Below, piece by piece: positions 1 through 37,501 of a stretch of DNA of 37,501 nt. A program made the translations under genes and the position numbers. Where the stretch lies: the IMG/VR virus record IMGVR_UViG_2526164690_000052; one strand, written 5' to 3'. Each line of letters starts with the position of its first letter. Positions within the stretch are counted from its first letter, which is position 1. This DNA comes from a virus. Its lineage: Duplodnaviria; Heunggongvirae; Uroviricota; Caudoviricetes. The notes under the pieces were generated by a model. It made no database searches and was not told where the DNA came from. It saw only the letters and a program-made list of their open reading frames with translations.

Positions 1-1002
1 TTACCCTCTATTGTCAAAAGGGTTCAATTCAACAGCAGCCTCTAAATGACCTGGAGCAAAATGCGCATAACGCATAGTCATTTTTATATCGCTATGCCCC
101 AGTATTTTTTGCAACACAAGAATATTTCCGCCCCGCATCATAAAATGACTGGCAAACGTGTGACGTAGCACATGAGTTAATTGCCCATCAGGAAGCTCGA
201 TCTTCGCTCTCTTAATTGCAGCGTCAAAAGCCTCATAACATGGTGAAAATAGCGCTCCTCGTTTTTGAGGAAGCATAGCCTGCAATTGAGGTGAAATCGG
301 TACAGTGCGGTTCTTCTTTCCTTTAGTTTTAACAAATGTGATTCGACCGGGCAGTACTTGAGATTGCTTTAATCCTTCAGCTTCACTCCACCGAGCACCA
401 GTCGCAAGCCCAATACGGACAACACCCCCCAAATCTTTATTCCGTGACTCATCACACGCAATCAGAAGGCGTTCAATCTCATCTACATACAGAAACGCCA
501 GTTCCTTTTCTTCCTCACGAAACTTGCGAATACCAGTCAGGGGGTTTTCACCAGACCACTCCCCAAGGCGCTTCAGTTCGGCAAAAACAGCATGTAGATA
601 TGACTGCTCGCGATTAACGGTTGCTTCACTAAGTTTTTTCTTCCCCTTGGGATTCCATTCTCCTGATAGCCTTCTTTCCCGATAAGTAGCAAACATATTT
701 TTGTCAAACTGAGAAGCAAATGGATCCCCCAGCCTGGAACAAATCGCCTCAAGTTTGACTTTGCGCTCTGCACCAGAGGACAAGGTTTTACCGTACATCT
801 CAAACCAACGAGCAATCAACTCAGAAAGACGAGGACCAGAACCATCTTGAAACTCGTCTCCAACTCTACTATTCATTAAACGGCGCTCATAAGAGAGCGC
901 CTCACTTTTTGTCGCAAACTGTTTACGAATGCGTTTTCCCGATGCCCCGTAGGGATAACATTCGCAAAGCCATTTACCTGATGGAATCTTACGAACCGAC
1001 AT
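1..1002 (-). CDS. int: Tyrosine site-specific integrase (P2/186-type prophage integrase)
   Basis: 333-aa ORF; C-terminal tyrosine-recombinase signature HVLRHTFASHF...GHSDIKMTMRYAHF; sits at prophage edge, co-oriented with repressor; its stop codon is window bases 1-3. Confidence 0.9.
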   Translation of the reverse strand: MSVRKIPSGKWLCECYPYGASGKRIRKQFATKSEALSYERRLMNSRVGDEFQDGSGPRLSELIARWFEMYGKTLSSGAERKVKLEAICSRLGDPFASQFDKNMFATYRERRLSGEWNPKGKKKLSEATVNREQSYLHAVFAELKRLGEWSGENPLTGIRKFREEEKELAFLYVDEIERLLIACDESRNKDLGGVVRIGLATGARWSEAEGLKQSQVLPGRITFVKTKGKKNRTVPISPQLQAMLPQKRGALFSPCYEAFDAAIKRAKIELPDGQLTHVLRHTFASHFMMRGGNILVLQKILGHSDIKMTMRYAHFAPGHLEAAVELNPFDNRG

Positions 1003-3872: not shown

Positions 3873-3982
3873 GTATATTTATATCCTGGATTGTTCTTAT
3901 TATTTCGGTGGTTTGTGCAATTGGTATTATGCGAATTATTAATTCAGTAAAAAAGATTGAACGCTTTTTCACTGGCGAATAA
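3869..3982 (+). CDS. Small hydrophobic membrane peptide (37 aa)
   Basis: ATG at 3869 overlaps upstream stop (ATGA coupling); translation MSIFISWIVLIISVVCAIGIMRIINSVKKIERFFTGE is one predicted TM helix with a basic tail; below the 60-aa cutoff of the ORF track; very AT-rich. Confidence 0.35.
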   Translation: MSIFISWIVLIISVVCAIGIMRIINSVKKIERFFTGE

Positions 3983-4068
3983 CCGCATAAATAAAACCCC
4001 AGCTTAAATAAAAAAATGTGAACACAATCTGCATTCGCAGAGGTATTCACACACACCAAGGAGGCGTA

Positions 4069-4272
4069 ATGGCAATTAAGCATTTTCCTGTCGTTCGTTT
4101 CACCTCCAGAGGACGTGAATACGAAGTCGACGAACGTCTGATTACCACAATCGACAAACACCGCTCAGAAAAGGATGCACACCACATCTATCTCACTGAC
4201 GGCACTTACTTTTGCGCCACTAATGTGGCGCGGGTGAATCTTATCCGACAGGTACAGGATCCACGCAAATGA
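4069..4272 (+). CDS. Hypothetical early protein
   Basis: ORF-track frame 4018..4272; start placed at ATG 4069 which follows AAGGAGG (4058-4064). Confidence 0.4.
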   Translation: MAIKHFPVVRFTSRGREYEVDERLITTIDKHRSEKDAHHIYLTDGTYFCATNVARVNLIRQVQDPRK

Positions 4273-4487
4273 GTAGGAGAAGAATCACTCGCAGACATCA
4301 CCGAACACACCTGAGTTCCTCAGCAACGCTAAAGGCACTTATTCAAAGCGAGATCGGTGATTTCTTCGCGGGAGTTGGCTCACCAGGCGAACCAGAAACA
4401 CCAGAAGCGATGCAGCGTGAGCTCATGATACGCATAGATAACACTTTTGATTTCTTCTACAGCATGCACGGAATTAAACAGAAATGA
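4269..4487 (+). CDS. Hypothetical early protein
   Basis: 72-aa ORF, start overlaps previous stop. Confidence 0.4.
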   Translation: MSRRRITRRHHRTHLSSSATLKALIQSEIGDFFAGVGSPGEPETPEAMQRELMIRIDNTFDFFYSMHGIKQK

Positions 4488-4595: not shown

Positions 4596-4985
4596 ATGAT
4601 TGACGCTCATGACTTCACAAGATGGGTGCGCACACAGGACACCCGTCTGGCTCCCGTTCTTCAGGGATTATTTGATCTCTACATCCGTGGTCGTGACAAC
4701 AGAGCACGCACCACAAAACCGGAGAATGCAGACACCCTTTATTTCACAGTAGACGACTGCTACCGCGTGGACTTCACACCACACGGGCTGGCGTTGCACT
4801 GCCTGACACCACACGGCGAATCACTGCTGGCGTATTACGACTCCCCGGCCTCCATATTTGCGGCAATGCTGGCGCATCGCACTGCTGGCGGGTGTGCCTC
4901 GCTGAGTGAATACTCCGCTGAATTTAACCGCCTTTCCGCCCTCTTCTCACAGGAGTGGCAGCGCGTGACGGGATACCAGCCATGA
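4596..4985 (+). CDS. Hypothetical protein immediately upstream of replication gene A
   Basis: 129-aa ORF; stop overlaps start of A. Confidence 0.45.
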   Translation: MIDAHDFTRWVRTQDTRLAPVLQGLFDLYIRGRDNRARTTKPENADTLYFTVDDCYRVDFTPHGLALHCLTPHGESLLAYYDSPASIFAAMLAHRTAGGCASLSEYSAEFNRLSALFSQEWQRVTGYQP

Positions 4986-7822
4986 GTGCGTTTGCATGGA
5001 GCTGGAATGAACCACGGCCAGCCATTGATCCGGCCAGATTTACGGAGCGCAGGCAGGAAACTGAAACCGACCTGCAACGCGCCATCCGTTACTACCTTGA
5101 GGCAAACAAAAGGGCACAGGAAGAACAGGAAGCGAAGGAAGAAGCCTTTTTCGCACAATCCACCGTGGGTAAAAAACTCATGGCATCCCTTGAGGAAGCC
5201 GGACAGCGTGAAAAGCTGGCACAAAGCATCATCAGCAAGCGTCAGGCAACAGAACAAGACCCGGTGGCCCGTGCTTTTGCCACACTGAAGGTGCTTCCCG
5301 TTTATCTGCGTGAACCTCTGAGCCGCCACCTCTCTTTTCTGCGCAAGAAGCAGGAAGCCGATCGTCAGAAAGGCAAAAAGAGCTGGCAGGCTGAACGCTA
5401 CGCGCGCGGAACCCTGCGCAAAATATTCGAACGTCTGGACCGCACCGACAGCCGCTGGCTGACACCGGGCTATCGCTCCCTTGCCGGACGCGAACGCCTG
5501 GACGATTTGCTTTACCTGCCGCAGCTCAACAAACACCAGATACAGACGCTGGCCACCATGACGGCGGCGATGTTCAGTGGCACTTTTGAAAAACTCTGCG
5601 ATGGCTTTGGCGCGACCGATGGCGAGCTGACCATGGATGTAACGCTGAAGGCGTATCAGATGCTGGCCCGCATGGCGTTACACCTGCACGCTATGCCTCC
5701 ACATTATGACGCTCTGACAACAGACAAAGACCGGAGGAATGAACCGGACACGGAGCTGCTGCCGGGCGCAATCCTTCGCCTGACCTGTGCGGAATGGTGG
5801 AAACGCAAACTGTGGCTGTTACGTTGCGAGTGGAGAGAAGAACAACTCCGCGCCGCCTGTCTGGTTTCCAGAAAAACATCACCCTATCTGAGCCAGGACG
5901 CGTTAAGCGAGTTTCGCGCACAGCGCGAGAAAACACGCGATTTCCTGAAAAGTTTCATGCTGGAAAACGAAGACGGGTTCACGATTGATCTCGAGACAGT
6001 GTATTACGCGGGAGTAAGTAACCCGATTCACCGTAAGGCAGAAATGATGGCCACCATGAAGGGGCTGGAACTTCTGGCCGAAGCCCGTGGCGACAGAGCG
6101 GTGTTTCTGACTGTCACCTGCCCGTCAAAATACCACGCCACAACAGAGAACGGTCATCCGAATCCCAAATGGAACGGGGCCACCATGCGCGACTCCAGCG
6201 ATTACCTGGTTAACACGTTTTTTGCGGCGGTCCGCAAGAAACTGAACCGCGACGGCCTGCGCTGGTATGGCATCCGCACGGTGGAGCCTCACCATGACGG
6301 CACCGTGCACTGGCATATGATGGTCTTTGCTCATCCGGAAGAAATCGACACCATTGTGTCCCACACCCGCGATATTGCCATTCAGGAAGACCGCCACGAG
6401 CTGGGCAATGATATTACTCCGCGCTTTAAGGTGGAGTATGTCGACGGCTCAAAAGGCACGCCAACCAGCTACATCGCCACCTACATCGGAAAGAACCTGG
6501 ACAGCCGCGCCGTGGATGGCATCGACCCGAAAACGGGCAAGCCACGCGTTGACCACGAAACCGGAAAATCAATGGCCGAGAGCGTGGAACGCGCCATCGG
6601 CTGGGCACGCCTTCACCGGGTCCGCCAGTTCCAGTTCTTTGGCATCCCCTCCCGTCAGGTATGGCGTGAACTCCGCCGCCTTGCCAGCCAGATGGCACGC
6701 AACCCGGAAGGCCCACAACGGCTGAAGGATGATGCAATGGATGCGGTACTCGCTGCCGCTGATGCCGGGTGTTTTGCCACCTACATTGAGAAACAGGGCG
6801 GCGTACTTGTTCCACGCAAAGACTACCTGATTCGCACCGCCTACGACCTCGCAGATGAGCTGAACGATTACGGCGAACAGAGCGTACAGATTTACGGGAT
6901 CTGGTCACCACTCATCGGGGAATCCTCCCGTGTGTGCACGCACTCGGATAACTGGAAGCTGGTAAGACGTAAACCGGAAGCGGAAGACAGCACCCGCGAA
7001 AATGGTTTTGACCTTCAGGGCGGCCCTGCCGCCACTTGGACTCGTGGCAATAACTGTCCCCGTGTACAGGAAACGGACAACAACGGGACAGAACAGCCGG
7101 AAGAAAGGCCAGCACCGTGGCCGCAGCTTCCTGACGGCGTTGACGTGAATGAATGGATGCGCTCACTGAAACGGCACGAACGCCGGGCGCTGATGCGTTC
7201 GCTGCGTGACAAACAGGCAAAAAACAGCAGTGATGAAATGCAGAACTGGACACAGAGCCGCAAACAGCCACGGCCTTTGCCTGATAACCACGAGTTACTC
7301 GCTAAAGAATGGCGGGAGTCTGCTGAATCTCTCGGCCTGCATATCGGTGAACAGCAGATGCAGCACCTGTTACGGGGCGGCAGTCTGTACGTTGACGGCA
7401 GCATCATTGCACCGCAGGGATTTGAAATTGTACGCAAACCAGATACCCGCCCGGACAGCCGAATCACGCAACTCTGGCAGCGCCTGAGCCGTAATCACGG
7501 CGTAAGCAGCACGGAGATCCGCCATAACCCGGTCGCCAGCTATCTGGAACAGCTGGGGGCATCAGACCCCGAAGCCGCCGCACACCTGGCATCCACACTT
7601 CAGCAGGACCAGAACACCATGAAAACCCCCGTTACCGTGCTTTCTGACATGCTGCGCGCCATCCGTGACGCAGTGCACGCACAGAGAATCAGTGAAACCA
7701 CTGAACGCGCCCACCGCAAAGCAGACCTGCTGCGGGGTAGCCTGACCAGTGGAAACAAAAAACAGACAGAAACGGGACTCACAAATCCCGTAAATGAGCA
7801 AAAAACGTGCCGCGATATATGA
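4982..7822 (+). CDS. A: Replication initiation endonuclease gpA (rolling-circle HUH nickase)
   Basis: about 946 aa; HUH-type motif TVEPHHDGTVHWHMMVF; overall resemblance to P2/186 A proteins; start uncertain (ATG 4982 or GTG 4955). Confidence 0.85.
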   Translation: MSAFAWSWNEPRPAIDPARFTERRQETETDLQRAIRYYLEANKRAQEEQEAKEEAFFAQSTVGKKLMASLEEAGQREKLAQSIISKRQATEQDPVARAFATLKVLPVYLREPLSRHLSFLRKKQEADRQKGKKSWQAERYARGTLRKIFERLDRTDSRWLTPGYRSLAGRERLDDLLYLPQLNKHQIQTLATMTAAMFSGTFEKLCDGFGATDGELTMDVTLKAYQMLARMALHLHAMPPHYDALTTDKDRRNEPDTELLPGAILRLTCAEWWKRKLWLLRCEWREEQLRAACLVSRKTSPYLSQDALSEFRAQREKTRDFLKSFMLENEDGFTIDLETVYYAGVSNPIHRKAEMMATMKGLELLAEARGDRAVFLTVTCPSKYHATTENGHPNPKWNGATMRDSSDYLVNTFFAAVRKKLNRDGLRWYGIRTVEPHHDGTVHWHMMVFAHPEEIDTIVSHTRDIAIQEDRHELGNDITPRFKVEYVDGSKGTPTSYIATYIGKNLDSRAVDGIDPKTGKPRVDHETGKSMAESVERAIGWARLHRVRQFQFFGIPSRQVWRELRRLASQMARNPEGPQRLKDDAMDAVLAAADAGCFATYIEKQGGVLVPRKDYLIRTAYDLADELNDYGEQSVQIYGIWSPLIGESSRVCTHSDNWKLVRRKPEAEDSTRENGFDLQGGPAATWTRGNNCPRVQETDNNGTEQPEERPAPWPQLPDGVDVNEWMRSLKRHERRALMRSLRDKQAKNSSDEMQNWTQSRKQPRPLPDNHELLAKEWRESAESLGLHIGEQQMQHLLRGGSLYVDGSIIAPQGFEIVRKPDTRPDSRITQLWQRLSRNHGVSSTEIRHNPVASYLEQLGASDPEAAAHLASTLQQDQNTMKTPVTVLSDMLRAIRDAVHAQRISETTERAHRKADLLRGSLTSGNKKQTETGLTNPVNEQKTCRDI

Positions 7823-7898
7823 AGCGCGCACAAAACAGGCAAAAGCGGGATTTAAAAATCCTGTAACCGATTAATTAATCAACACAAGGAAAAGCGAC

Positions 7899-8858
7899 AT
7901 GAAAATTTGTATCGACGACGGCTCCACCAACATCAAGCTGGCATGGACTGAGAACGGCGAACGCCGCAACGCCATCAGCCCGAACAGCTTCAAGTCGGAA
8001 TGGTCTGCGCCGTTCGGTGGCACGCAGCCCGCGAACTACATGCTTGATGGCGTGCGCTATGGTTTTGATCCGGTCAGCGATCGCTTTGTCCAGACGACCG
8101 ACACGCAATACCAGTACAGCGATGTGAATATAATTGCCATTCATCACGCGCTGGTCAAATCAGGCATCACACCACAGGAAGTGGATGTGGTTGTCACCCT
8201 GCCACTGAGCGAGTATTTCGATACAAACGCACAGCCGGACATGGCCAACATCAACCGCAAAAAAGCGAACGTCATGCGCCCGGTGGAGTACCAGAACGGC
8301 GAAGCATTCACTATCCGTAACGTACGGGTTATGCCTGAATCCATTCCGGCTGGCTTTAAGGCACTGGCTGACATGAGTCCGTTTGAATCCCTGCTGATTG
8401 TGGATTTGGGCGGAACCACTCTGGATGTGGCAAAGGTTCAGGGGCAACTGGCAGGTATCAGCCAGGTGTTTTGCGATCCACACGTGGGCGTTTCTCTGAT
8501 GGCCGATGCCGTACTGTCGGTGATGGCCACTAACGGTATGCGCACCAGTCACCACATCGCCAATACCATTATCGAACATCGCCATGATGAAGCCTGGCTG
8601 CGCCAGCACATCCACAATGACGCGCATTACGCCAGCCTGATGGCGGTTATTCGTGAAAAGGAAGAAACACTGAAACAACGCGTGATCCGCGCGCTGGCGG
8701 GTTTTTCGGGTTACGGGCGGGTGATGGTTGTCGGTGGAGGGGCGGAGATTGTGGCACCCGCTATCCGCGAAGCCTGCGGAGTTAATGCGACTTTCATCGC
8801 GGACGGGGTGCCACAGTTTGCTCTGGTTAATGGGCTGTACGCAATGGACAAGGAGTAA
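7899..8858 (+). CDS. parM: ParM/StbA-like actin-family segregation ATPase
   Basis: 319 aa; N-terminus MKICIDDGSTNIKLAW...ISPNSFKSEW and internal blocks (YSDVNIIAIHHAL, VMPESIPAG, DLGGTTLD, VGGGAE) match plasmid R1 ParM as recalled. Confidence 0.8.
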   Translation: MKICIDDGSTNIKLAWTENGERRNAISPNSFKSEWSAPFGGTQPANYMLDGVRYGFDPVSDRFVQTTDTQYQYSDVNIIAIHHALVKSGITPQEVDVVVTLPLSEYFDTNAQPDMANINRKKANVMRPVEYQNGEAFTIRNVRVMPESIPAGFKALADMSPFESLLIVDLGGTTLDVAKVQGQLAGISQVFCDPHVGVSLMADAVLSVMATNGMRTSHHIANTIIEHRHDEAWLRQHIHNDAHYASLMAVIREKEETLKQRVIRALAGFSGYGRVMVVGGGAEIVAPAIREACGVNATFIADGVPQFALVNGLYAMDKE

Positions 8859-8862
8859 ACCA

Positions 8863-9174
8863 ATGACGACTCCAACCAGACGGATAAGTTTCTATCTGAA
8901 GCCCACCGCCGTCAAGAACGAAGGAGAAGCATGCGCCTGGCTGGACAGCCTTACACCAGAAGCCCGCAAAAGCGGCCAACGCGTGGCTTTTCTGGCCGGG
9001 CTGGCACTTCTGAAAATGAATCCGGCAGAGGCTTATCGACTGGCTGCATGGGCTGGTGATGAAGCGTTATCAGTGACACAAACCAGGACAGAACGCCCCG
9101 CATCACAGCCAGTATCAACCGCACAGATAACCAGTCAGATGGCCGGAAATATCCGGGCGTTATTTCCTGAATAA
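8863..9174 (+). CDS. parR: ParR/StbB-like partition adaptor
   Basis: 103 aa from ATG 8863 (AGGAG 7 nt upstream); RRISFYLKP...AWLDSLTP...RVAFLAGLALL pattern resembles R1 ParR N-terminal RHH region; directly downstream of parM. Confidence 0.6.
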   Translation: MTTPTRRISFYLKPTAVKNEGEACAWLDSLTPEARKSGQRVAFLAGLALLKMNPAEAYRLAAWAGDEALSVTQTRTERPASQPVSTAQITSQMAGNIRALFPE

Positions 9175-9237: not shown

Positions 9238-9828
9238 ATGAGCGAAATCAACTATCAGGCATTACGTGAACGTTATTCACCTGTGCCAGTACCGAAATGC
9301 CCTATTTGCGGCGAGGAAATGTCAATTCAGCGAATATCTGGAGCACAGGTTGTTTATGCCTGCTCCGGTTATGGTGATGATGGAGATTTCAAAATTGGCC
9401 AAACTCTTGCCGACGAACATTATGAAAAATCACGCGTAACAGTGTTGGATGTCGGGGATCCTGAAGTATTGGCGCTACTTGATTGGCTGGAAACCAAAGA
9501 CAACCGAATCGCTGAACTGGAAAAAATCGCCACTGACTATGCACTTAAATTCCAGAAAGCACAGGACGCATTAAAGTATGCCGCTTTGCTGCATAGCAGG
9601 ACGGCGCAACAAACAAATAATTTTGCAGTATCGCTTCCGGACATAAGCGAATATTTCATTAATGACGTATTTCAGCCCTTGCGATACGAGCGGGATGTTG
9701 AAAGAGCCATCATAAAGGCTGGCGGAAAAGCATTGTGGCAGGAGAAACACGAGGACAGAACGCATCAGTCCTGCGATGTAAATCGTGGATGGTTTAGCCC
9801 ACTGACGACAGATAAAAATAACACCTGA
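9238..9828 (+). CDS. Hypothetical moron protein with N-terminal Cys-rich (zinc-ribbon-like) region
   Basis: 196 aa; KCPICGEEM...YACSGYG near N-terminus; AGGAG RBS; occupies the tin/old-equivalent variable locus between A and cos. Confidence 0.5.
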   Translation: MSEINYQALRERYSPVPVPKCPICGEEMSIQRISGAQVVYACSGYGDDGDFKIGQTLADEHYEKSRVTVLDVGDPEVLALLDWLETKDNRIAELEKIATDYALKFQKAQDALKYAALLHSRTAQQTNNFAVSLPDISEYFINDVFQPLRYERDVERAIIKAGGKALWQEKHEDRTHQSCDVNRGWFSPLTTDKNNT

Positions 9829-9866: not shown

Positions 9867-10317
9867 CTGCACAATAGTGCACAAGTTTGCACAATTTTTT
9901 TGAACGACTTTTTACCCTTCCGGCCCGCATGGCGGCTGGATCCGTCAAGGATCCGTGCGTGCACAAAAAAACGCGCTTTTTCTGCGCGCAGGTGACGGGG
10001 GAACAGCCCGCGTTTCAGGGGGTAAATAGCATCCCCTGAACGATGTCGCAGCGACACAACAGAATGGCTGTATTTCTCACGCTGAGCGTGAAAAAGACGT
10101 GAGGGCTTTTGATTTGATGGGTGGCAGATAAGGCCGTCAAAATCGCACTGAGGCGGCGAGAACATGCAGTCAACGCGGTGGGATTGCGTAAGAGTCTGAC
10201 CGCCGATGATGACAATAAGCAGAAAAGCGTCGTGAAATTATCTGATTGATACAGGAGCTGGAGAGTCGGGGCATAAATTTTTTATGCCCCGGCGAAGCAG
10301 CAGACAAGCGAAGCGCG
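9867..10317. other. cos / packaging-site region (candidate cohesive-end sequence near 9991-10009)
   Basis: non-coding stretch between accessory locus and 3' end of portal gene Q, the position of cos in P2-like genomes; dense in palindromes (CTGCGCGCAG 9982-9991) and phased repeats; GGTGACGGGGGAACAGCCC matches the P2 cohesive end as recalled at 13 of 19 positions. Confidence 0.4.
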
Positions 10318-11364
10318 TCAGGATGTGGGCTGGGTATCTAGCAGTGCGTAAGGGTTAAAGCGGATCACCTCTTCGCCAAGCCAGTCATTGATGTGCTTCA
10401 TGGCCTCCATGACGGGCATCAGCTCGTTAATTGCGTAAACCCGCGCGGCCTTCTCCACATCACCAAACGCACTTTTTTCGCCCGGCATCGCCCCCATCAG
10501 TTGCGGCGGAACGCGGTGCGCAGCCAGCACATCATCACGGGATGCCGCCTTAACATTCATGAACTCATCCTTTGCAGTGATCTGCTGGAACGGCAAAATT
10601 TGCACACCTTCTTTGCCCCCGTTGGGCGCATGGATGAGTACGTTTTTAAACGCACCACCACCACGCGCGCCCTGTAACGTTTCTTTCAGGGAGTCCATGC
10701 TTTCGCGGTTTACCTGCGCTGCACCGATGTAGATGATGCACCCGGCGTGGGATCCGTTGTCGTAGTACAGTTTTCTGAACATGTCCGCCGAATGAGAAAG
10801 GCTGGCCGAGAGTAATGCGCCAAGATATTCCGGCATGCCGTAGATTTCCTGGTTAATATCCGGATTCATCAGGTGGCACACTTTGCCAGGGCGAAACTGG
10901 AACGCGTCCTTGCCATCCTGCACATACCACCATGATTCAAGATCGCTTCCGCGTCGCATGTATTTCGCCAGGGCGTGCCGTAATTTAAGCGGTTCGCCGA
11001 GCATATTGCTTCTAAGCTCAAGGAATGCGTTACCGAACACAAACCAGTCCAGCGCCAGCGCCGAGAAATCCTGCCGGGAAAGCAGCGGGTGCGGGATGTA
11101 GCAACCGAGTAATACATTGCGCTTAAAGTAAAGCGCAGACTGATGCCAGGACGTTTGCCGGGCTGCTCTTGCCAGACCGTACCAGTCCACCGGGGTTTCA
11201 TACCACCGTCCGTTATCAGCACAGTACATATTGTCCAGCAGGTCATGCCCGGTCAGGCGATAAGGACCATCAAATGTGAATGCACTGAGCGATGATTCTT
11301 TCCTGAGCGCATCAGCGAGATCAATGCGTGAACTCATGCGCACTTTTTTATTTTTTCTGCTCAT
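10318..11364 (-). CDS. Q: Portal protein gpQ
   Basis: 348 aa; P2 Q-like sequence and synteny (Q-P leftward, overlapping P stop by ATGA). Confidence 0.9.
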   Translation of the reverse strand: MSRKNKKVRMSSRIDLADALRKESSLSAFTFDGPYRLTGHDLLDNMYCADNGRWYETPVDWYGLARAARQTSWHQSALYFKRNVLLGCYIPHPLLSRQDFSALALDWFVFGNAFLELRSNMLGEPLKLRHALAKYMRRGSDLESWWYVQDGKDAFQFRPGKVCHLMNPDINQEIYGMPEYLGALLSASLSHSADMFRKLYYDNGSHAGCIIYIGAAQVNRESMDSLKETLQGARGGGAFKNVLIHAPNGGKEGVQILPFQQITAKDEFMNVKAASRDDVLAAHRVPPQLMGAMPGEKSAFGDVEKAARVYAINELMPVMEAMKHINDWLGEEVIRFNPYALLDTQPTS

Positions 11365-34143: not shown

Positions 34144-34795
34144 GTGGGAAACAATAAAGTGAAATTAGGAAGAAATGATAAGTGCTGGTGTAATTCAGGA
34201 CTTAAGTATAAAAAGTGCCATCTTGGTCGAGATCGTGAAACTCCGGTATCCAAAGCCGAGGCACTGAAATTTTCAAAGTCTCTCTCGCAGAGAAAGGCAT
34301 GTTATGCGCCAGCATCCATGCACGAAGATTGTGATAAACGCATCGTTCAGGCGCATACGATATCTAAGAGCAGTAGCCTTAAGGCGATCGCCGACTCCAG
34401 CAATCACGTCATGGGGGTGATAATGAACTTAGCAAGCCTGATGAGAAACAACGGAAAATGGCTTCCCGAGAAGATCGGTATCAATCAGGCATCCACTTTT
34501 ACAGGATTTTGTGCAGTTCATGACAGAATCTTATTTTCATGCCTAGAGAACGAAAAATTTACAGGCACGGACGAGCAGTGCTTTGCCTTAATGTTTCGTT
34601 CATTGTCTAAAGAAATTTATGCCAAAGAAGGGGGAGTGCTATCTTCTGATTTTGCTAAAAATGCCGATAAAGGAAAGCTACAAGTTGAACAGTATTATAT
34701 TCAGAAATTAATCGACCAGCACCAAAGTGGCTTAAATGCAGCAATAATTGAATTAAATAATCTTAAAACTAGCCTCGACCGCATCCTACTTAGCA
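34144..34795 (+). pseudogene. N-terminal part of an IS10-disrupted cargo gene (SEC-C zinc-motif protein)
   Basis: ORF with N-terminal CWCNSGLKYKKCH (SEC-C-type metal-binding motif); reading frame runs into IS10 end at 34796 and stops 11 codons inside the IS; AT-rich. Confidence 0.6.
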
Positions 34796-36124
34796 CTGAG
34801 AGATCCCCTCATAATTTCCCCAAAGCGTAACCATGTGTGAATAAATTTTGAGCTAGTAGGGTTGCAGCCACGAGTAAGTCTTCCCTTGTTATTGTGTAGC
34901 CAGAATGCCGCAAAACTTCCATGCCTAAGCGAACTGTTGAGAGTACGTTTCGATTTCTGACTGTGTTAGCCTGGAAGTGCTTGTCCCAACCTTGTTTCTG
35001 AGCATGAACGCCCGCAAGCCAACATGTTAGTTGAAGCATCAGGGCGATTAGCAGCATGATATCAAAACGCTCTGAGCTGCTCGTTCGGCTATGGCGTAGG
35101 CCTAGTCCGTAGGCAGGACTTTTCAAGTCTCGGAAGGTTTCTTCAATCTGCATTCGCTTCGAATAGATATTAACAAGTTGTTTGGGTGTTCGAATTTCAA
35201 CAGGTAAGTTAGTTGCTAGAACCCATGGCTCCTTTGCCGACGCTGAGTAGATTTTAGGTGACGGGTGGTGACAATGAGTCCGTGTCGAGCGCTGATTTTT
35301 TCGGCCTTTAGAGCGAGATTTATACAATAGAATTTGGCATGAGATTGGATTGCTTTTAGTCAGCCTCTTATAGCCTAAAGTCTTTGAGTGACTAGATGAC
35401 ATATCATGTAAGTTGCTGATAGGTTTCCAGTTTTCCGCTCCTAGGTCTGCATATTGTACTTTTCCTCTTACTCGACTTAACCAGTACCAACCCAGCTTCT
35501 CAACGGATTTATACCATGGCACTTTAAAGCCAGCATCACTGACAATGAGCGGTGTGGTGTTACTCGGTAGAATGCTCGCAAGGTCGGCTAGAAATTGGTC
35601 ATGAGCTTTCTTTGAACATTGCTCTGAAAGCGGGAACGCTTTCTCATAAAGAGTAACAGAACGACCGTGTAGTGCGACTGAAGCTCGCAATACCATAAGT
35701 CGTTTTTGCTCACGAATATCAGACCAGTCAACAAGTACAATGGGCATCGTATTGCCCGAACAGATAAAGCTAGCATGCCAACGGTATACAGCGAGTCGCT
35801 CTTTGTGGAGGTGACGATTACCTAACAATCGGTCGATTCGTTTGATGTTATGTTTTGTTCTCGCTTTGGTTGGCAGGTTACGGCCAAGTTCGGTAAGAGT
35901 GAGAGTTTTACAGTCAAGTAATGCGTGGCAAGCCAACGTTAAGCTGTTGAGTCGTTTTAAGTGTAATTCGGGGCAGAATTGGTAAAGAGAGTCGTGTAAA
36001 ATATCGAGTTCGCACATCTTGTTGTCTGATTATTGATTTTTCGCGAAACCATTTGATCATATGACAAGATGTGTATCCACCTTAACTTAATGATTTTTAC
36101 CAAAATCATTAGGGGATTCATCAG
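34796..36124 (-). mobile_element. IS10 insertion sequence (IS4 family), complete 1329 bp, flanked by 9-bp target duplication TACTTAGCA
   Basis: terminal sequences CTGAGAGATCCCCTCATAATTTCCCC (34796 onward) and ...AATCATTAGGGGATTCATCAG (ending 36124) match IS10 inside and outside ends as recalled; direct repeats at 34787-34795 and 36125-36133 fit the IS10 target consensus. Confidence 0.9.
34809..36017 (-). CDS. IS10 transposase
   Basis: 402 aa beginning MCELDILHDSLYQFCPELHLKRLNSLTLACHALLDCKTLTLTELGRNLPTKARTKHNIKRIDRLLGNRHLHKE, recognised as Tn10/IS10 transposase. Confidence 0.9.
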   Translation of the reverse strand: MCELDILHDSLYQFCPELHLKRLNSLTLACHALLDCKTLTLTELGRNLPTKARTKHNIKRIDRLLGNRHLHKERLAVYRWHASFICSGNTMPIVLVDWSDIREQKRLMVLRASVALHGRSVTLYEKAFPLSEQCSKKAHDQFLADLASILPSNTTPLIVSDAGFKVPWYKSVEKLGWYWLSRVRGKVQYADLGAENWKPISNLHDMSSSHSKTLGYKRLTKSNPISCQILLYKSRSKGRKNQRSTRTHCHHPSPKIYSASAKEPWVLATNLPVEIRTPKQLVNIYSKRMQIEETFRDLKSPAYGLGLRHSRTSSSERFDIMLLIALMLQLTCWLAGVHAQKQGWDKHFQANTVRNRNVLSTVRLGMEVLRHSGYTITREDLLVAATLLAQNLFTHGYALGKL

Positions 36125-36910: not shown

Positions 36911-37171
36911 ATGTTCCGTTGTCCGCTTTGTGGCGCATCTGCCCGAATCCGCACCAGTCGTCCGGAAAACGATTCAAACACTGTGCGGCAAAAGTATTAC
37001 CAGTGTAACAACCTGGAATGCGGCGTATGCTTCTCAACACTGGAAGCTTTCCATAAATTCACATCAAAACACGCCTCCGGCGTTCACTCTTCGGAAGGTA
37101 TCCCGTGGCATGAGCTGCCAGCTTCACACAGGGGAAACAATCAGATGAGTTTGCCTTTACCTCAGAATTAA
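36911..37171 (+). CDS. ogr: Late gene transcriptional activator, Ogr/Delta zinc-finger family
   Basis: 86 aa; MFRCPLCGASARIRTSRPENDSNTVRQKYYQCNNLECG has the C-x2-C...C-x4-C pattern of P2 Ogr; located downstream of D. Confidence 0.85.
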   Translation: MFRCPLCGASARIRTSRPENDSNTVRQKYYQCNNLECGVCFSTLEAFHKFTSKHASGVHSSEGIPWHELPASHRGNNQMSLPLPQN

Positions 37172-37360: not shown

Positions 37361-37501
37361 ATGTCGCAAAAATCGCTTACAGCCATCACGTTCTGCGTGA
37401 CGGTAATCCTCATCATCTGGATGCTACACGGTTCGCTGTGTGAAATACGGATGAGCTTCTGGGGAGCGGAGTTTGCGGCGTTCTTACAGTGTAAGCAGTA
37501 A
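37361..37501 (+). CDS. Hok/Gef-family type I toxin (small membrane peptide)
   Basis: 46-aa ORF MSQKSLTAITFCVTVILIIWMLHGSLCEIRMSFWGAEFAAFLQCKQ; TM helix followed by SLCE(I/L) and (E)xAAFL motifs shared with HokA/Hok as recalled; below ORF-track cutoff; stop codon is the last 3 bases of the window. Confidence 0.65.
   Translation: MSQKSLTAITFCVTVILIIWMLHGSLCEIRMSFWGAEFAAFLQCKQ

Follow-up and report, generated by a model that had tools for sequence, protein, structure and literature searches.

An integrating, rolling-circle phage of the P2 family found in about a quarter of Escherichia coli genomes keeps a plasmid-type segregation machine. We examined its likely role in IMG/VR record IMGVR_UViG_2526164690_000052, a stretch of 37,501 nucleotides (the window) that is a P88-like prophage (genus Xuanwuvirus, family Peduoviridae) in an E. 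coli O111-type chromosome. As an earlier annotation made from the letters of the window (the sequence-only reading) had noticed, two genes, parM and parR (the parMR cassette), lie directly after replication gene A, on the same strand and 76 bp from its end (Table 1). The role that we favor, at about an even chance of being right, is one that this reading had listed as an alternative, the segregation of replicating phage DNA.

The first gene encodes an actin-like ATPase of the R1 ParM type. Residues 1 to 157 of the product match Pfam StbA_N (3.7e-82) and residues 159 to 316 match the ParM C-terminal domain (1.3e-68), both at full length, and the R1 ParM structures 1MWK (1.2e-92) and 4A62 align to residues 2 to 316 at E=1e-92. 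The actin-fold ATPase motifs are present and identical or conserved relative to R1 ParM: phosphate-1 IDDGSTNIK, the catalytic MPESIPAG (PES), phosphate-2 DLGGTTLD, and the adenosine motif GGGAE. Identity over the full length is about 48 to 50% to R1 ParM (47.6% to one R1-type ParM) and reaches 53% to that of p19-7P3 (IncFIA/FIC), the nearest plasmid relative. The resemblance to R1 ParM claimed by the sequence-only reading is thus borne out, and its coordinates were exact; the TAA stop codon of parM is at 8856 to 8858.

The second gene had been called a small ParR-like protein with its own AGGAG ribosome-binding site, and this also holds. The product matches PF10784, Plasmid_stab_B (StbB/ParR family; 3.1e-23), and PHROG 2515, "partition protein" (1.7e-57). 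The AGGAG lies 7 nucleotides (nt) before the parR ATG, an arrangement of translational coupling between parM and parR. Identity to plasmid ParRs is only 28 to 29%, and tblastn with ParR found no plasmid ParR at E<=1e-3. ParR had no direct sequence match in PDB; with a profile built from 25 relatives, the top PDB match was pB171 ParR/StbB (2JD3), at a marginal E of 0.015 over residues 8 to 69. An AlphaFold2 model of the monomer was of low confidence (mean predicted local distance difference test score, 56), with helices at residues 20 to 29, 32 to 52, and 54 to 61 that are compatible with a ribbon-helix-helix (RHH) fold and with the N-terminal strand unmodelled. A Foldseek search with this low-confidence model gave no significant match.

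Constraint varies along ParR. Among its relatives (52 to 100% identity, nearly all from Escherichia), residues 6 to 14 (RRISFYLKP) are nearly invariant and the helical region is conserved to residue 64; the linker at 65 to 92 is hypervariable, and the C-terminal NIRALFPE is conserved again. The ratio of nonsynonymous to synonymous polymorphism (pN/pS) follows the same division, at 0.09 for the N-terminal part, 0.69 for the linker, and 0.0 for the 11 C-terminal residues despite a pS of 0.32. The C-terminal motif (N-I-x-x-L-F-P) recurs in plasmid ParRs, as N-[IA]-x-x-L-[FI] in the R1-type and p19-7P3 proteins. In ParMRC systems, ParM is bound by the C-terminal peptide of ParR, and structure 4A62 shows ParM in complex with that peptide. 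Fixed ends joined by a free linker are the pattern expected of a working adaptor.

The ratio of nonsynonymous to synonymous substitution rates (dN/dS) for parM was about 0.065 (10 loci). Across 85 phage and prophage loci, parM is intact in 82 and parR encodes 102 to 104 amino acids in 83. These values indicate that both genes are under strong purifying selection, and the sequence comparisons place the identities of parM and parR and their genomic context far beyond chance matches. The composition of parM (GC 55%; GC at third codon positions [GC3], 65%) is that of gene A (57% and 63%), unlike plasmid parM genes (GC 39 to 47%). This indicates that the module is an old resident of the phage.

Some parR alleles are sharply diverged (about 55% identity; locus L006, positions 3965 to 4279, and locus L009); the parM joined to them is near-identical and the region upstream identical. 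The alleles part near codon 18, and conservation returns over the last 8 codons. A probe for the cassette was covered to at least 80% in only 744 of 1308 matching E. coli records, which would fit the existence of many alternative parR alleles. A possible explanation is that parR alleles have diversified to limit cross-talk among co-resident prophages.

The sequence-only reading had taken the cassette for cargo at the variable tin/old position of P2. We found instead that it is distributed with the replication module. Probes for gene A and for parMR match the same phage records (14/14). In 5426 complete E. coli genomes, the parMR probe matched 1455 places in 1307 genomes (24%), with up to 3 copies per genome, and the gene A probe matched 1602 places in 1424 genomes, so that parMR places amount to ~91% of those of gene A. 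The order A, parM, parR, varying genes, Q is found in P88, Chuche, 520873, 503458, PhiSM, 569R5, and a circular record of 34.5 kb. The slot after parR is filled by different genes in P88, Chuche, 569R5, 520873, and PhiSM, and similarity between two parR alleles stops right after the parR stop codon. Thus, the variable hotspot (the P2 tin/old position) begins after parR. Phage 500465-2 shares the ogr-hok end of these phages yet is absent from both the gene A and the parM match lists; together with the strict gene A linkage, this indicates that the cassette travels with the replication module. By this distribution, parMR belongs to the conserved core of P88-like phages and is not variable cargo.

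Nor is the cassette an anomaly among integrase-bearing P2-like phages, as had been suggested. Apart from its frequency in the complete genomes, it is carried by about 1/4 of E. coli P2-like prophages (PMC9122126), and prophage CGP3 of Corynebacterium glutamicum provides a precedent (PMC4446434). RefSeq genomes and phage records already annotate "plasmid segregation protein ParM" and "partition protein," and both proteins have PHROG families. Published P88-like copies (P88, NC_026014 gp17/gp18; Xuanwuvirus P884B11; PhiSM parM/parP; 520873; 503458) show no material difference from that in the window, at 94 to 99.7% nucleotide identity and 95.6 to 100% identity in ParM. The PhiSM study lists the cassette as a "fitness" gene (PMC6456863), and Rousset et al. 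2022 remark on it and speculate about plasmid maintenance (PMC9122126). Thus, the literature already contains both the finding and its main interpretation, and detecting the cassette by genome scan adds nothing beyond the existing annotation and that published remark.

A ParMRC system also needs a site for its adaptor. In the comparison sequences, R1-type parC consists of A/C-rich repeats of ~11 bp arrayed on either side of the promoter. The P88-like cassette has, in contrast, two 38-nt repeat copies 73 bp apart, each with a 20-bp palindrome (Table 1). Close matches to the palindrome in the window number 3 sites at <=3 mismatches (6 counting both strands), versus about 0.5 expected. Conservation of the repeats extends over 58 distinct upstream haplotypes; in most relatives the palindrome has perfect 8-bp arms, ACGGGATT-TCAG-AATCCCGT (in general form ACGGGATT-N4-AATCCCGT). 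In two loci, L068 and L081, the 3' region of gene A is different and similarity resumes just upstream of repeat 1. In two loci, both copies are altered at one shared arm position; the change is G to A in each palindrome of L081, and the two copies of the other locus are changed differently. A comparison of the palindromes with the ParR N-terminal region revealed no clear pattern of covariation. The region downstream of parR is not conserved, which excludes a centromere there. On present comparisons, the two palindromes are the best candidate for a parC or operator.

Other roles and signals were considered for this region and rejected. An A-rich motif, AAARCRG, is densest near parM, but it was derived from the same region, which makes the argument circular. 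The palindromes are not an Ogr late-promoter dyad, as no TGT-N12-ACA occurs near parM. A role as replication origin was set aside, as the equivalent of the P2 nick site (about 7020 to 7060 within gene A, located by aligning it with P2 A and its annotated nick site) places the predicted origin about 0.75 kb upstream of them. Intrinsic terminators were rejected too: the hairpins that the palindromes form (-9 to -11 kcal/mol) lack a U-run on the + strand. Locus L035 had seemed to mark a left module boundary; a 34-nt probe from its upstream sequence occurs on 23 viral contigs, twice in opposite orientation on one of them. It is therefore most likely the end of an insertion sequence (IS), and L035 differs by an insertion, not in its backbone.

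Between the early region and parM, neither a consensus sigma-70 promoter nor a + strand terminator was predicted. The sole promoter-like string found by eye was a weak TTTAAA-N17-ATTAAT, the -35-like TTTAAA of which overlaps palindrome 2. In P2, orf91 directly follows A on the same strand and overlaps its end. The shared strand, the 76-bp gap, the lack of an intervening promoter or terminator, and the geometry of P2 orf91 together suggest that parMR is cotranscribed with the replication genes. Expression would then be expected after infection or induction and not in the repressed lysogen.

Three known systems help to place the cassette. The ParMRC (parA/stb) loci of plasmids R1/NR1 and of IncF plasmids share with it the ParM motifs, the parM-parR order and its tight coupling, PF10784, and the layout of ParR. 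They differ in residing on plasmids rather than in an integrating phage, in having a recognizable sigma-70 promoter, and in their much lower GC. Among phage records, a close ParM homologue was otherwise found only in D6, whose StbA-type locus encodes a protein of 47.5% identity. D6, which is P1-like, is maintained as a plasmid prophage. Its record is 91 kb. P88-like elements, by contrast, have an integrase, and more than 99.8% of the cassette places in the E. coli genome set (1453 of 1455) are chromosomal. The third system is AlpC/AlpA/alpS of CGP3, likewise an actin-like ATPase with a DNA-binding adaptor in an integrated prophage (PMC4446434, PMC5539076). There, the adaptor binds upstream of its own operon, which is induced early, and without AlpC/AlpA the circular phage DNA is not replicated efficiently (PMC4446434). 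Host and phage type differ, and the P88-like ParM is a close R1-type protein rather than a distant member of the Alp family. The geometry of the P88-like locus is compatible with AlpAC as a functional model for parMR.

By analogy with AlpAC, we propose, with moderate confidence, that a ParMRC-type machine acts on extrachromosomal circles of the phage genome, either early in replication or while the phage is transiently episomal. parM and parR would be the last genes transcribed in the early replication operon (cox ... A - parM - parR). ParR dimers would bind an adjacent cis site, most plausibly the palindromic repeats at 7772 to 7864, which lie about 0.75 kb downstream of the predicted origin, and the conserved C-terminal peptide of ParR would capture the ends of ParM filaments. 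ATP-driven polymerization of ParM could then push apart or position circular extrachromosomal phage genomes. Such circles would exist after infection or after excision, during A-dependent replication yielding monomeric circles. The benefit may be better replication and packaging, or the inheritance by both daughter cells of circles that have not yet integrated or have just been excised. The in silico basis of this proposal is gene identity, motifs, constraint, the ParR domain pattern, gene A linkage, operon geometry, and chromosomal residence; what we infer is that ParR binds the palindromes, when the genes are expressed, and how phage DNA is affected.

Several points weigh against this proposal. 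The sequence-only reading had recommended looking for ParR-binding iterons, and no R1-like array was found: autocorrelation at lags of 5 to 39 over 7740 to 7900 gave no significant period. A canonical centromere was thus not found, only the two palindromes upstream of parM. These could equally be RNA hairpins, at the stabilities given above, or a duplicated 3' end of gene A. One natural variant, locus L047 (IMGVR_UViG_2657245439_000011), has lost one repeat copy through a deletion of ~73 bp between the repeats, so that the end of gene A runs directly into repeat 2. The timing of expression is deduced solely from gene geometry. Finally, we found no functional study of the cassette in the literature, nor any experiment on P88-like parMR in what is searchable.

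The rival explanation that survives best, though we regard it as unlikely, is a facultative phage-plasmid: a low-copy circular episome partitioned by ParMR and stabilized by Hok post-segregational killing, for which integration is dispensable. The sequence-only reading had raised an episomal or phage-plasmid lifestyle, and the same idea was raised by Rousset et al. 2022 (PMC9122126). Phage-plasmids (P1, N15, SSU5, and D6 types) are extrachromosomal and typically lack an integrase, whereas this prophage carries int and is integrated at the yecA/tRNA cluster, and all but two of the E. coli occurrences are chromosomal. PhiSM, which belongs to the same genus and has the same cassette (ParM 99.4% identical), likewise forms integrated lysogens at attB in K-12 (PMC6456863).

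Seven PLSDB records match the cassette. Five are of 228 kb to 1.4 Mb, well beyond phage size, so that the cassette presumably sits within a large replicon, and a sixth is a linear record of 26.7 kb in which phage structural genes are interrupted by IS1 copies. The seventh, NZ_CP148288.1 (L002), from a cat E. coli isolate, is the one record that speaks for an episome: a circle of 34,461 bp comprising a complete P88-like genome. However, it includes int, and a phage 99.9% identical to it is chromosomal in strain Z1323HEC0067, apparently a sister strain, as the name suggests the same collection. Because it keeps its integrase and a near-identical phage is integrated, the circle fits an excised replicative form. 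We therefore rejected the "plasmid" matches as evidence for an episome.

The second support for a phage-plasmid is the Hok-family toxin that the sequence-only reading had placed at the right edge, and which is there (Table 1). The hok/mok locus after ogr is conserved in P88-like phages (93 to 98% identity) and is labeled "MokW-like host killing" by RefSeq in P88; an Rfam scan of the window, which ends within the hok open reading frame (ORF), found no Sok or hok RNA. The parMR and hok genes of the two R1-type stability modules are thus present, as claimed, and both are conserved in P88-like phages. However, about 180 other phage records, most of them of Shiga toxin (Stx)-converting phages, contain hok-like loci at 80 to 90% nucleotide identity. 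The pairing of parMR with hok, although real, therefore does not identify a plasmid state. A-type rolling-circle replicons are not known to have a copy-control system. The cassette is chromosomal in 1453 of 1455 places rather than on an autonomous low-copy replicon, which leaves a transient circular form of the phage as the only possible substrate. When the phage cannot integrate, or does so late (for lack of attB, at an occupied site, or following spontaneous excision), the circle might still be kept as a low-copy episome, with ParMR acting on a two-palindrome centromere and Hok providing addiction, which we consider distinctly unlikely. A stable plasmid lifestyle is poorly supported.

A role in interference, in which ParR and ParM would act in trans on competing elements (incoming related phages or plasmids, for example) through incompatibility or mis-segregation (exclusion), seems very doubtful. 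The cassette lies between gpA and gpQ and adjoins a known defense hotspot (PMC9122126), and diverged ParR alleles (52 to 100%) occur with near-identical ParM, in up to 3 copies in some genomes. Defense cargo of the P2 gpA-gpQ hotspot is marked by variable presence and by similarity to defense systems; the cassette is fixed within the genus, and no PADLOC defense model matched it. Cross-binding to plasmid centromeres is unlikely given the distance between this ParR and plasmid ParRs, and the N-terminal strand of ParR that would contact DNA is invariant across alleles. The lack of a predicted promoter for expression in the lysogen also argues against interference.

That the cassette is an inert relic of plasmid origin that accompanies the replication module would suit the lack of a canonical parC and residence in the chromosome, where partition is unnecessary, but is extremely improbable in view of the strong purifying selection that acts on parM and at the two functional ends of parR, ORFs intact in about 97% of the 85 loci, and a base composition fully ameliorated to that of the phage.

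Table 1. Positions of the parMR cassette, its candidate sites, and flanking genes in the window
Feature	Position	Strand	Description and basis
Tyrosine integrase (int)	1..1002	-	Left prophage end; RefSeq annotation of identical prophage, ORF call
Replication gene A	4982..7822	+	Rolling-circle initiator; PF05840 8.9e-130; RefSeq "replication endonuclease"
Repeat copy 1 (38 nt)	7756..7793		Palindrome ACGGGACTCACAAATCCCGT at 7772-7791, in last 22 gene A codons; candidate ParR site; possible RNA hairpin of -9 kcal/mol
Repeat copy 2	7829..7866		Palindrome GCGGGATTTAAAAATCCTGT at 7845-7864, A-parM intergenic; candidate ParR operator/centromere
parM	7899..8858	+	Actin-like segregation ATPase, 319 amino acids; Pfam, R1 ParM alignment, dN/dS, ORF integrity
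parR ribosome-binding site, AGGAG	8851..8855	+	Just 5' of parM stop codon; read from sequence
parR	8863..9174	+	ParR/StbB-family adaptor, 103 amino acids; PF10784, PHROG 2515, 2JD3 profile match, pN/pS
ParR domains (residues)	1-64; 65-92; C terminus		RHH-like N-terminal domain; variable linker; NIRALFPE motif
Ead/Ea22-like gene	9238..9828	+	PF13935 2.4e-31; GC 45% (low); first gene of variable hotspot
Portal gene Q	10318-11364	-	Downstream of variable hotspot
ogr	36911-37171		Upstream of hok
hok (Hok/Gef toxin)	37361..37501	+	PF01848 3.7e-7, above cut-off; ORF runs off window end

The window is laid out in the order int, immunity genes, early rightward genes, A, parM, parR, the Ead/Ea22-like gene, and portal gene Q. 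The cassette is 100% identical to copies in Shiga toxin-producing E. coli O26, O103, and O111 chromosomes. In a collinear genome, the prophage occupies the interval between yecA and the tRNA Leu-Cys-Gly cluster. O111:H11 strains match the whole of the right end of the window, which contains an IS10-type insertion. This IS10/ISVsa5-type element occupies 34809 to 36079, with a transposase ORF at 34809 to 36017 (- strand) and RNA-OUT at 36010 to 36079. It interrupts a SEC-C/YecA-family cargo gene (truncated ORF, 34144 to 34830) between gpD and ogr and is missing from the otherwise identical O103 and O26 prophages.

Three other places carry apparent cargo, named by correspondence to the RefSeq annotation of the collinear genome: a DUF2511 protein and a membrane protein between int and the repressor (1008 to 2035, - strand), a 625-residue DUF6645 protein between lysis and tail genes (18082 to 19959, + strand), and a serine O-acetyltransferase beside the tail-fiber genes (26182 to 26787, - strand). 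An Rfam match to RF02111, "IS009," at 25904 to 26101 (+ strand; 185.8 bits, E=8e-45) spans the 3' end of ORF 25561 to 25968, the tail-fiber assembly equivalent, and the spacer before the O-acetyltransferase gene. In the noncoding stretch between the hotspot and Q, a TGT-N12-ACA dyad at 10044 to 10061, which we take to be of the P2 Ogr-box type, may serve the Q-P late promoter.

If it is true that parMR organizes replicating phage circles, the AlpAC paradigm of CGP3 would extend to phages of Gram-negative bacteria by way of R1-type ParM, the best-understood bacterial actin. If instead parMR supports an episomal phase, the boundary between integrative prophages and phage-plasmids would blur, and a quarter of E. 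coli strains would harbor a P2-family element with a dual integrated and episomal existence.

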